Source of the DNA: Amoebidium appalachense
Taxonomy: Eukaryota > Protista > Ichthyosporea
Assembly: GCA_963693365.1 (NCBI GenBank)
Contig: CAVNZM010000017.1
Span: forward strand, 721,989-785,988
Length of the DNA: 64,000 nucleotides
Direction: 5' to 3'
Part shown: piece by piece, positions 20,828 to 42,177 of the stretch
How positions within the stretch are numbered: position 1 is the stretch's first letter
Layout: each line of letters starts with the position of its first letter
Notes under the pieces: generated by a model
Told to the model about the DNA's origin: nothing
Databases searched by the model: none
Seen by the model: only the letters and a program-made list of their open reading frames with translations
Program-made: the position numbers and the translations under genes

Positions 20828-23800
20828 ATGGCTGACAACAGCTTCACCGTTTTTGCCTCCCCCGACTTCCTCCCCCTTGGCGCCCTCCTTCTCCTACTAA
20901 AAGCGGCGCGGTTGCGGCTGTGTGTGGTGACCTCATATGTGCACTCTTACGTAAGCACACGGAGCAGAGAGCACAGGCTGGTAACGGGTCTCACTGAGTG
21001 CATATCGAAACACTACTCGTGGGAAGGTGTGTGTTCACGTGGTGTGTGCACGCATTGTGATCACGTGGTGTGGTCAGGTGGTTTGCACGTGATTTGAACG
21101 TACATACATGTGGTGTGGGTTATAAGGAGGGAGGATGGGTGGAGGGTGGGGAGGTGGTGCCGGAGGGCGGAGGGGGGGAGAGGGGGGGGGGGGAGGGGGC
21201 AGGAATATGTGTGTGTGTGAGTTGCATATGTGGTCACACGTCGAAGGGTGTGCATGAATGTGTACATATCATGTGGAGTGGGTCATGTGCACGTGCAGCT
21301 GGGAAGGACTACGCACACGTGCACACACACATGAACACTCACACATATGTACACACACACAAACAAAGGCACATCTGCGTATATCTGCCACATCAACGTT
21401 AAGTATCTTTAAGCCAGATGAACATCACTATCACTATCCCCCCCCCCCCCCCCCCCCAAAAAAAAAAAAAAAAAAAAGGAAAAAAAAAAAGAGAGAGAAA
21501 GAAAAGAAGAGAAAAACCTTTGTTCTGTTCAAGTCTATAACATCGTATGAACTACTGGTTGATATTTTTTTCTTTTTATTAAGGTGTTTGCTTCCATGTC
21601 TGCCACCCACTAGGGTTTTACCCCCCCCCCCCCCCCCCCCCCCCCCTACCCCCTCTTCCCCCATCCCCCCCTCGGTCCTCTTCTCCCGTCCCCCTCCCCC
21701 GTATCCCCACTGCATGCTGTTCTTGTGTCATTGTGTGTTTTTCTTTCCTACCCTTCATTGCTGTTTTCCTTAGTGCCCATTGAACTCATACCTCGCTTTC
21801 AGGAAACCACACGGGCTTACCTCATTTTTCTATCGTGTGGAAACCTTTCAAGAGGAAAGGCCCAGATATCTCCCTTGTCTCTGGTAAACCCCCCCCCCCC
21901 CCCCCCCCCCCCCACACGCACAGACATTTTCCTCTCCTGCCCTCCTCCTCACTTCGAATTAACCCGCCCCCTCCCTCCTCCCCCCCCCCCCCCCCCCCCC
22001 TCTTCCCCCCCTTCTTCCCCCATTCTTCCAAAATACACACCCACATGCCTAGTAATCCTTTTGCTTTTAGGAGACTCAGGGGATGGATTTTAGTTAAAAA
22101 TTGGGGGTGCGCAACGGATCGAGATCGACCAAATTCCATGATTGATCCAGTCGATCAATTGATGCCGAACTGTCCGAAAGTTCAATTTGCACTATAAACC
22201 CCGCTTAGATCCTGGACGATTGACCGCATAGAGTTTGGGAGAAAATGAAATTTCACCTAGAAAGTGGGGGGTAATTACCTATTGAAATTTTTGTCCGGGG
22301 GAGTGGTAGGCCTCGTTTGAGGCACCCATCTTTTGCTTAGCATAAGCAATTATGAAGAGGGTATATTACGACATTACGAGGGGCTGTAATCAAACTTTGT
22401 TATGTAATCACCCCCCACTTATTAGTAGGATTCTATTTTCAGGGCAAATTTATGCGGTCATTCTCTCTGGATCTAGCGTTGAAACTAAGACAGCTTGTAA
22501 TCAAAAGCCCCTAAAGTGACAATTTAAGCCGGCTCACAGACTGAATTTGATCGATTCCGATCGATTGGATCCCCCAATCACAATGCCGGCAAACCATCCC
22601 CTAAGTCTCCTTAAGCACAAAATTTCTGCAATCATTTGATACGTTTTTCATAAACTGCAACGAGCATGAACGACAAGAGGCTAAAAAGAAACCATCGGGG
22701 TAGGAAGGGGAGGCTTAGGAAATAAGCGGGGAGAACTGGGATGATGGGATGGGAGAAGGGGAGTTGTGTGTGTGTGTGCGTGTGTGTGTGTGTGTGTGTG
22801 TGTGTGTGTGTGTGTGTGTGTGTGTGTGTGTGTGTGGGGGGGGGGGGGGGGGGGGGTTGGGATCAAGGGAGGAAAATTCAATTTGGATGGGATGTATGAA
22901 CATGGGTTGTTGGTTGCTTGTGTGATTTTGGGTTCCTGTTTGTTTAGCACAGTCGCTTGGTGGATGAATGTATTGTTATGAGAGCGGGTAGGGGTGAATA
23001 CTCTTTTTCGTGTGCTAGTTGCATAGTGAGTTTTTGAGGTTTAATTGTTCTTCTTCTTGTCTTTTCTTTTCTTTTCTTTTTCTTTTTCTTTTCTTTTTTA
23101 TTTTTCTTTGTTTATTTCCTTGTTTATTTCCTTTTCTTTTTTTCTTTTTTTCTTTCTTTCTTTTTTTTTTTTGTGTGTGTGTGTGTGTGTGTGTGTTGGG
23201 GGGGGGGGGGGGGGGGGGGGGGGGGGGAAGAAGAGGCTGAAGTTAGTAGAGAGACAGGAAAGTACATCGATGCAATCATACCCCCCCCCCCCCCCTTCTT
23301 CGCCAAAAAACCCCCTGTTTTTCCCTTTTCATGCACGTAGAATTTACCGCTTTTTCATTCCCAGGGCACAGCAGTGGCGGCAATTATACCGAAATATCCG
23401 GGGTTGGAAATGTGGCACGCTTTCTTTGCCGCTATTTTACGCCCCTCAGAGGTCTTTACGATGAGTTTAAGGTGGGTGTAGTTGAATTTTGCGTTCAGCC
23501 TGTTGTGTGTGTGTGTTTTGGAGGGGGGGGGGAGGGGTTGGTGGGGCCGGTAATGGGGTGGAATTTCCGGTGGTGGTGGGGATGAGATTTGTTGTCGGAA
23601 AGGCGAGTGAGGAGGAAGAGAAAAGTTCACAGATTTCGGGCGTGTGTGTGTGTGTGAGTGTGTTTGGGGGGGGGAGGGGGGGGGGGGGGGGGGGTGAGGT
23701 TGGGGGAAGGGCGTTGACAGTGTGTGCATGCGTGTCTGTTGATCGTAAATCGGTGCTTGTGTTAGTTCCAATAAAAAACCCCCAGCGATTACCCTGTGGG

Positions 23801-41800: not shown

Positions 41801-42177
41801 TTGTCAAAGCAAGCCACATATACAGTCTCCCTGTATCCCAAGCAACATCCCCCACATTAACAAACCCCCCTGCGTCATTCCCAGTATCGGGGGGGCATTT
41901 TGCAAGCTTCAGCCACTCAAATTTCAAAGACACTTCCCCCGGACCCCTCCCACCACCCTTGATTCTTTCACCGCTCGCACGGCAGAGAGGAAAATCTGTG
42001 CCTAGCAGCCTTGGGGGGGGTTTGCCGGGCGAAAATCATGGGTCGTTGATGAATCGAAGCAGAGACGAATTGGTGACACGTCCGGTGATTGAAATTAGTC
42101 CTGTAAGAAGAGGCAGCGTGGAAAAAAGATCACCGCTTGCGCAGAATCGAGGTGGAACGTATCGTAAGTTGTCTTGA
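20828..42177 (+). CDS. Multidomain protein: AIMP2-like (Trx + GST-C) / SIR2_2 NADase-like / macrodomain-like / ubiquitin-like / disordered tail (~1050 aa, 27 exons)
   Basis: Exons: 20828-20980, 21774-21883, 23365-23471, 24389-24480, 25423-25540, 26061-26176, 26814-26978, 27718-27851, 28141-28237, 28891-28991, 29545-29670, 30282-30327, 30885-30973, 31863-31929, 32383-32415, 33035-33124, 34340-34428, 35453-35631, 36457-36518, 37101-37202, 37598-37762, 38468-38553, 39110-39220, 39626-39727, 40196-40252, 40994-41063, 41696-42177. All GT-AG. Phases match except at four places, each repaired by adding one base. Confidence 0.75.
22070..22610. mobile_element. Foldback MITE, probably PIF/Harbinger-type (TTA target duplication)
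   Basis: TIR ggagact(c/t)aggggatgg at both ends, flanked by TTA (22067-22069 and 22611-22613). Degenerate inverted similarity extends roughly 200 bp inward. No ORF. Confidence 0.75.
24115..24342 (+). mobile_element. Interspersed repeat, diverged subfamily B
   Basis: Shares ggtcgaaactc, tgatgac, ccctgaggatgggctctgc and terminal cttcgtac...gcattcaaa+poly(C) with family A; closest to 63436-63630. Confidence 0.7.
24925..25180. mobile_element. Small MITE-like element
   Basis: 28-bp terminal inverted repeats tccgtatctaccattttagc(g/a)tctgggc, with one mismatch. Target duplication not clear. Confidence 0.6.
29035..29139 (+). mobile_element. Repeat family A, short truncated copy
   Basis: Matches the last ~105 bp of family A, with poly(C) on both sides. 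Confidence 0.75.
29315..29447 (+). repeat. ~40-bp tandem repeat mimicking the downstream splice acceptor
   Basis: ctgtgtagggattgg-like units recur; the real junction at 29537-29551 reads ctgtgcag|ggattgg. Confidence 0.7.
33668..33866 (+). mobile_element. Repeat family A, truncated copy (plus a degenerate fragment at ~33945-34005)
   Basis: Reverse complement of the 2661-2870 sequence, embedded in poly(C). Confidence 0.75.
35453..39220 (+). other. Macrodomain-like fold
   Basis: KVSVDCID...MAIAVSVG...[13 protein letters not shown]...VRVWLVCG...[17 protein letters not shown]...[14 protein letters not shown] follows the macro element order (GDI, DAIVNAAN, GGGVA.AI, VIH.V, L...Y...L..A, SIAFP.IGTG.GG) but is divergent. 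Confidence 0.55.
36590..36890. repeat. ~180-bp direct tandem duplication in intron
   Basis: (gaaaa)n...gaaggtaggactttaggtgcatgtgtgcaggtg.gcgggcgtgcgggcgg-poly(T)-poly(G) occurs twice. Confidence 0.8.
40196..41781 (+). other. Ubiquitin-like (beta-grasp) domain
   Basis: MEITCVAKS...[18 protein letters not shown]...LPDHIRV...[15 protein letters not shown] aligns by eye with ubiquitin (MQIFVKT, LEVEPSDTIENVKAKI, PPDQQRL, LSDYNIQKESTLHLV). No terminal di-Gly. Confidence 0.6.
40853..40993 (+). repeat. ~19-20-bp tandem array of branchpoint+acceptor units
   Basis: Unit tctgacgttctatttatag repeated about 6 times with variation; the last unit is the real acceptor of exon 40994. Confidence 0.8.

Follow-up and report, generated by a model that had tools for sequence, protein, structure and literature searches.

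An AIMP2-like module fused to a SIR2_2 domain in an intron-rich gene of the ichthyosporean Amoebidium appalachense

SIR2_2 (SIRim) proteins are NADases that depend on a conserved Asn and His and are activated by oligomerisation or by a ligand (10.1101/2024.09.18.613514; PMC12700824). The equivalent Asn and His are required for the NADase activity of ThsA and FAM118B, and both proteins need to oligomerise (PMC12700824; 10.1101/2024.09.18.613514). SIRims occur in 19% of 985 EukProt species, and in one eukaryotic group, clade C (83 species), which branches with ThsA-like proteins, the SIRim is typically fused to a Macro domain (10.1101/2024.09.18.613514). In the animal-type tRNA synthetase complex, the glutathione S-transferase (GST) domains of AIMP2 and EPRS form heteromeric docking surfaces (PMC8216282), and the N-terminus of AIMP2 carries a segment that binds lysyl-tRNA synthetase (LysRS) and a leucine zipper (PMC4394549). 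The origin of this complex has been placed near the origin of Metazoa, with no AIMP2 (p38) homologue reported in yeast, bacteria or archaea (PMC4394549). We describe a gene that joins elements of both systems. It lies at 20828..42177 on the forward strand of a 64,000-nucleotide (nt) stretch of Amoebidium appalachense DNA (the window; contig CAVNZM010000017.1, positions 721,989 to 785,988).

The fusion of an AIMP2-like module with a SIR2_2 domain is real, transcribed and conserved in a second species. In an assembled contig (X1 record 1; 1221 nt, depth 74.7, zero mismatches) the exon 26061-26176, which ends the GST part, directly abuts the exon 26814-26978, which begins SIR2; contig positions 437-555 correspond to 26057-26175 of the window, and contig positions 270-436 to 26813-26979. 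The read cover of the intervening intron, between exons 6 and 7, comes from repeat pieces only. Each loose end of the contig has a single position in the window, one in exon 5 and the other in exon 8; by length arithmetic the contig could begin 73 nt ahead of the ATG and reach 39 nt into exon 10. The read assembly was examined over 26020-27000 in runs X1, X2 and X3; within this interval run X2 gave repeat pieces only and run X3 nothing. Runs X1 and X2 also contain 0.98 and 0.89 of the words of the last exon, a figure not counted as evidence here because the assembly covers 26020-27000 only. Homologues were sought with exon 1 among 1.84 billion representatives, which returned two matches at E ≤0.001. 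One (P0124) was rejected as a repeat-rich chance match. The other (P0123) is the 344-amino-acid (aa) model Ihof_evm8s170 of Ichthyophonus hoferi (EukProt EP00124 P002481), with 167 of 335 residues identical (50%, E 4e-108). It is collinear with exons 1-8 and has the same join between a thioredoxin-like (Trx)/GST module and SIR2. Its C-terminus coincides with the exon 8 boundary, so that only the first third of SIR2 is included, and it is probably a split annotation. As in the original prediction, the fusion needs no sequence correction.

The gene itself is a real spliced gene in a repeat-rich eukaryotic region, with small exons interspersed with poly-C and CA tracts. Exons were picked by eye and splice sites set by script. 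The resulting models have 28-29 exons and 1072-1093 aa, are open without sequence correction and have an AG acceptor and a GT donor at every intron; the 28-exon model encodes 1089 aa with zero internal stops. The 27 exons and ~1050 aa originally predicted were thus too few, and the start, stop, strand and domain order stand. Splicing keeps the frame throughout exons 1-15 (559 aa) and again through the 11 exons that start at 35453; introns measure 71-1481 nt. The downstream exons are coding, since with a codon-use model built from exons 1-15 they score 0.12 when read in frame, and shifting the frame either way lowers the score to -0.29 or -0.31. For the exon 1 to exon 2 junction, the join 20950->21774 was rejected because it runs into a stop, while 21026->21803 stays open; a frameshift in exon 2 was rejected as well, the latter join being open and matching P0123. 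The features are as follows.

20828..21026 (+): exon 1; ATG and thioredoxin-like (AIMP2-type) subdomain, aa 1-66 (Thioredoxin_16 E 0.025; 35/66 identical to P0123)
21803..21883 (+): exon 2; Trx-like strand, aa 67-93 (in-frame splice; 4/27 identical to P0123, whose region aligns to AIMP2)
23365..23471 (+): exon 3; end of GST-N with AIMP2-like G-N-x-x-R-F-L motif, aa 94-129 (16/36 identical to P0123; PDB match of P0123)
24389..24480 (+): exon 4; GST-C helix, aa 130-159 (9/30 identical to P0123)
25423..25540 (+): exon 5; GST-C core (TIADV), aa 160-199 (GST_C_3 E 0.0011; donor set by contig loose end)
26061..26176 (+): exon 6; final GST-C helices, aa 200-237 (contig X1 record 1; 16/38 identical to P0123)
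26814..26978 (+): exon 7; linker and SIR2 start (GAGIS), aa 238-292 (abuts exon 6 in contig X1 record 1; 39/55 identical to P0123)
27718..27851 (+): exon 8; small helical SIR2 subdomain with CxxC, aa 293-337 (contig loose end; 31/45 identical to P0123)
28141..28237 (+): exon 9; helical SIR2 insert (in-frame splice; within SIR2 profile match)
28809..28991 (+): exon 10; SIR2 TTNWD motif with predicted catalytic Asn414 (motif, SIR2 profile match)
29545..29670 (+): exon 11; SIR2 insert preceding the His strand (in-frame splice, SIR2 profile match)
30282..30327 (+): exon 12; SIR2 KLHGD motif with predicted catalytic His478 (motif, SIR2 profile match)
30885..30973 (+): exon 13; SIR2_2 core (SIR2 profile matches)
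31863..31929 (+): exon 14; SIR2_2 GxSxxD motif (Pfam SIR2_2 E 0.027; profile match)
32724..32780 (+): exon 15; C-terminal SIR2 part (in-frame splice)
33035..33124 (+): exon 16; last SIR2 strands, donor 33124 or 33128 (SIR2 profile match, splice-site scores, translations)
33702..33727 (+): possible alternative exon; stop at its opening if joined from 33128 (590-aa product), readable from 33124
34340..34428 (+): exon 17; acceptor 34340 (preferred, with microexon) or 34349, frames differing (splice-site scores, translations)
34611..34617 (+): candidate 7-nt microexon that would hold the preferred path in frame (splice scores, translations)
35453..35631 (+): linker and start of macro-like domain (in-frame splice, codon use, global alignment)
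36457..36518 (+): macro-like domain exon (in-frame splice, global alignment)
37101..37202 (+): macro-like domain exon (in-frame splice, global alignment)
37598..37762 (+): macro-like domain exon (in-frame splice, global alignment; alone no database match)
38468..38553 (+): macro-like domain exon with P-x-L-x-x-G-x-G-G loop (best-aligned spot for divergent macro profiles, under shuffle level; global alignment)
39140..39220 (+): end of macro-like domain (in-frame splice, global alignment)
39546..39554 (+): candidate 9-nt microexon, optional for the frame (splice-site scan)
39626..39731 (+): linker exon (in-frame splice)
40176..40252 (+): start of ubiquitin-like (Ubl-like) domain (in-frame splice, global alignment)
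40994..41063 (+): middle of Ubl-like domain (ubiquitin alignments)
41696..42177 (+): last exon; end of Ubl-like domain, Pro/Ser-rich tail of ~130 aa and stop (model translation, ubiquitin alignment)

The N-terminal module (aa 1-240) had been predicted to be AIMP2-like, and this is supported by Pfam and by structure matches of the I. hoferi protein. Pfam was run exon by exon, and 3 of 26 peptides had any match; in the module, Thioredoxin_16 (E 0.025) and GST_C_3 (E 0.0011) both fell under the cut-off. In P0123, GST_C_3 rises just above it, with Thioredoxin_16 at E 0.0028. P0123 has 14 matches in the PDB, led by three human AIMP2 entries (E 8.8e-5 to 1.6e-4), with the EPRS GST domain (E 0.13) and KomC (E 0.19) next; with an alignment profile, enzyme GSTs appear at E 0.46 or worse only. 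By these searches AIMP2 is the closest solved relative. PDB searches with single exons gave nothing under E 0.7. The predicted fold of P0123 is of low confidence (AlphaFold; pLDDT, the predicted local distance difference test, 39), and a fold search with it returned no match at E 0.001. The LysRS-binding segment and leucine zipper of AIMP2 are absent from the gene product and from P0123, because both begin at the Trx-like subdomain; if the contig follows the model, there is room upstream of the ATG for 73 nt only. The module is AIMP2-like yet falls short of full AIMP2 membership.

The second part, ~aa 258-600, belongs to SIR2_2 by profile and motif. The profile match is collinear across exons 7-16. 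It scores 85 bits on a profile of 25 bacterial proteins chosen by Pfam PF13289 alone, with 200 shuffles at 4.5 or below. A second profile, of 34 bacterial proteins selected in part for their resemblance to exon 7, gives 107 bits. Only SIR2 loci that show the motif pattern were retained, 34 for this second profile and 90 distinct domains for a tree; loci L069 and L074, from unpublished genomes, were excluded from every analysis. The NAD-site motifs G.G, ..N.D and.HG (legend to Fig S2 of 10.1101/2024.09.18.613514) are intact as GAGIS (aa 282), TTNWD (aa 412) and KLHGD (aa 476). The immune-type assignment and the retained motifs of the original prediction are supported. Asn414 and His478 are the predicted catalytic residues. 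The four-Cys zinc tetrad of sirtuins is absent, as had been claimed, because only two single Cys follow the His within the domain. An additional cysteine feature had been overlooked: the small helical subdomain of exon 8 (27718-27851) contains a CxxC at aa 314-317, with a His after it, which I. hoferi has too. The CxxC is rare in bacteria, occurring in 3 of 90 SIR2_2 domains; it may be a metal site, one without relation to the sirtuin tetrad.

Among the 90 distinct bacterial SIR2_2 domains, the best pairwise match is a SIR2-STALD ThsA (43 bits; the next scores 36), in line with expectation for eukaryotic SIRim clades B and C, but the quick tree gave no supported placement. A profile of exons on a bacterial scaffold gave 322 matches, and among the 120 listed all lay near the scaffold. 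Exon 7 found 7 loci in metagenomes, matched at the first SIR2 motif only; the 5 that were scanned encode SIR2_2 proteins without GST or macro. Exon 7 found none among viral contigs, and homologue searches with exon 10 and with exon 13 found nothing. A plasmid locus (L001, 1442-2819) contains an unannotated gene pair, a HAM1-like frame (by eye) adjoining a SIR2_2 gene, which resembles Kongming KomB-KomC.

Downstream, aa 656-844 are likely a divergent macrodomain-like fold in the same chain. In global pairwise alignment, three of 22 macrodomains, singled out after the fact, reach z values of 4.7, 4.1 and 3.6, with two controls at maxima of 2.0 and 1.1. For these three, 0, 0 and 3 of 3000 shuffles were as good, and their best windows in the whole protein also lie within aa 656-844. 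All three are divergent Pfam Macro proteins. Because of this divergence and of the choice after the fact, the support is modest. For aa 891-962, weak to modest evidence points to a ubiquitin-like fold: the region is the best local match of 62 of 95 related ubiquitins, and in global alignment 24 of 32 sampled ubiquitins have their best window starting at aa 893-909 (median z 2.7). Per-exon Pfam found no match in the Ubl-like exons. The macrodomain and Ubl of the original prediction thus gain modest global-alignment support, and profile searches did not rise above shuffles.

Taken together, the protein would be a gated NADase that docks on tRNA synthetases through its AIMP2-like module, with a macro sensor, a Ubl tag and a role in stress or infection; we put this reading as a whole at roughly 45%. 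Its parts differ in strength. From what is established for the family, the SIR2_2 part would very probably be an NAD+ hydrolase switched on by oligomerisation or a ligand, in the manner of ThsA or FAM118B. The ADP-ribosylation activity that had been offered as an alternative finds no support, being the job of a separate subfamily, SirTM (PMC12700824), while the domain here matches SIR2_2. As judged from a weak alignment, the macro-like fold would probably sense an ADP-ribose-type ligand, and, again on weak alignment, the Ubl would, a shade less surely, serve as an interaction or turnover tag. For a trigger in immunity the odds appear even. Docking of the GST surface on GST-bearing synthetases is proposed because the AIMP2 and EPRS GST domains are themselves heteromeric docking surfaces; such tethering to the synthetase complex is tentative. 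A wider and rather unlikely extension is that an ichthyosporean AIMP2-type scaffold domain, older than animals, became part of a Thoeris-like SIR2-macro NADase; the synthetase complex itself would then carry, or be guarded by, an NAD-depleting immune effector, an integrated decoy on the translation machinery. Animal viruses are known to engage the complex, and infection sets members of it free (PMC10754286).

Several observations weigh against this reading. The transcript evidence is confined to exons 5-8 and to a single run of a single study, taken as RNA by guess, and the table of read joints is empty. P0123 is silent on the gene beyond exon 8 because its model ends there, and Thioredoxin_16 stays under the cut-off in it too. 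The missing LysRS-binding and leucine-zipper region of AIMP2 counts here as well. The quick tree of 91 rows, built without eukaryotic references, places the SIR2 domain in no well-supported group. On five local macro profiles and one profile alignment, aa 656-844 did not score above shuffles; 19 of the 22 macrodomains have z ≤2.2, and both full ThsA_Macro proteins score under shuffles. Local ubiquitin alignment was likewise not above shuffles, 91 of 500 being as good. Homologue, PDB and ESM Atlas searches found no relative for any downstream exon, the last with no usable match for the two exons tried. In the searches made, no transcript or homologue bridges the SIR2 part to the macro/Ubl block, and the candidate donors of exon 16 all score 2.1 or below.

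Improbable, but the first alternative to be considered, is a housekeeping role without any part in defence: the protein would be the lineage's own AIMP2 scaffold, with SIR2 linking tRNA charging to NAD/ADP-ribose status. AIMP2 as closest solved relative, retention of the fusion in two species at 50% identity, and an intron-rich gene whose spliced contig comes from an ordinary run would all fit. The protein nevertheless lacks the leucine-zipper/LysRS-binding N-terminus of a full scaffold, and the SIR2_2 proteins studied to date function in defence or immune signalling (10.1101/2024.09.18.613514). Of similarly low probability is a GST module that merely provides self-association or stability, fixing how the NADase oligomerises without any contact with the synthetase complex. 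SIRim activity is indeed oligomerisation-dependent (PMC12700824; 10.1101/2024.09.18.613514), classical GSTs are dimeric, and GST-like modules are attached to many proteins (PMC4394549); the module here, however, is nearer to the AIMP2 and EPRS GST domains than to any enzyme GST, and these two serve heteromeric docking (PMC8216282).

Exon phase and codon use indicate that one chain very probably runs through to 42177. Between exon 16 (33035) and the exon at 35453, a splice-site model trained on the gene's remaining junctions allows 116 open paths. Of the seven that were translated, one is interrupted at codon 591 (590 aa) and the other six read through to 1072-1093 aa; the SIR2 profile gives no ground for choosing among them. 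The path we prefer, for its stronger acceptor, is 33124->34340-34428->34611-34617->35453 (29 exons, 1093 aa). Less probable still than the alternatives above is a two-gene layout, in which the AIMP2-like/SIR2 protein (590 aa) would finish with exon 16 and the macro-like/Ubl part would be a gene of its own starting at ~34340: the 33128->33702 join yields an immediate stop, the exon 16 donors are poor and the gap is unbridged, but gaps of ~0.6-1.2 kb fit the gene's intron range, many open canonical paths exist, codon use is continuous and a SIRim-Macro fusion is a described eukaryotic build (10.1101/2024.09.18.613514).

Elsewhere in the window, a ~135-base-pair short interspersed repeat at 33736-33870 recurs at 58629, 60699, 2658, 29026, 24171, 63514 and 33960 (82-98% identical); besides 33736-33870, three copies lie within introns of the SIR2 gene. 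Tail-to-tail with this gene, at ~45400-49400 (-), is a TRAF-like gene with zf-TRAF in three stretches and MATH_2, under or near the cut-off. TRAFs are immune signalling adaptors in animals, and the neighbourhood may be due to chance. Exons of a ubiquitin C-terminal hydrolase (Peptidase_C12, above the cut-off) lie at ~52660-57300 (+). An unbroken 282-aa frame at 14242-15090 (-) has an AP2 domain (E 1.8e-6, under the cut-off), unusual for an animal relative and possibly mobile. The 739-aa reverse transcriptase frame at 9160-11379 (+; RVT_1 E 4e-28) is likely a retroelement without long terminal repeats (non-LTR). Exons at ~16700-18800 and ~3300-5500 (-), without a Pfam match, are by eye what we take to be GPI (glycosylphosphatidylinositol) mannosyltransferase- and hexosaminidase-like.

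The original prediction regarded the whole architecture as undescribed. That novelty is reduced, because SIRim plus Macro is already described as typical of clade C (10.1101/2024.09.18.613514): the SIR2-macro part is a known eukaryotic build, and what appears new is the AIMP2-like module on it. No description of an AIMP2-SIR2 fusion was found in the literature searched, with most subscription papers outside its coverage, and the main text of 10.1101/2024.09.18.613514 has 0 mentions of GST, glutathione, ubiquitin or Ichthyospor. The I. hoferi protein may be among the entries of Table S4 of Bonhomme et al., since I. hoferi is in EukProt. The gene places an AIMP2-like module outside animals and couples it to an effector domain whose origin lies in bacterial defence against phages. 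With both in a single protein, one could ask directly whether a SIRim of eukaryotes keeps watch over translation, and gain a hint of what triggers eukaryotic SIRims.

Among known systems, SIRim clade C (Bonhomme et al.) shares with the protein a zinc-less SIR2_2 domain, here followed by a probable macrodomain, and a ThsA-like nearest bacterial match; the AIMP2-like Trx/GST module of the present protein, its Pro/Ser tail and its probable Ubl go unmentioned in the main text of that paper, and the protein is only a candidate for the clade. Thoeris ThsA (SIR2-STALD) and Kongming KomC have the SIR2_2 NADase motifs and are the best pairwise and PDB SIR2 matches, whereas the present protein has no STALD and no partner genes, shares at most 27% identity with them in the tree alignment and carries long helical inserts. 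Human FAM118B/SIRanc, compared by description, is likewise a eukaryotic SIR2_2 protein with catalytic Asn and His and no zinc module, but forms a stand-alone vertebrate clade. Human AIMP2/p38 (PDB 6IY6, 5A34, 5A1N) has the same Trx-like plus GST-C module and is its best solved-structure match; it differs in its LysRS-binding/leucine-zipper N-terminus, while the present protein lies outside animals and adds an enzyme domain. I. hoferi P0123, although a model of 344 aa, shares half of its 335 aligned residues, the same join and the same CxxC.

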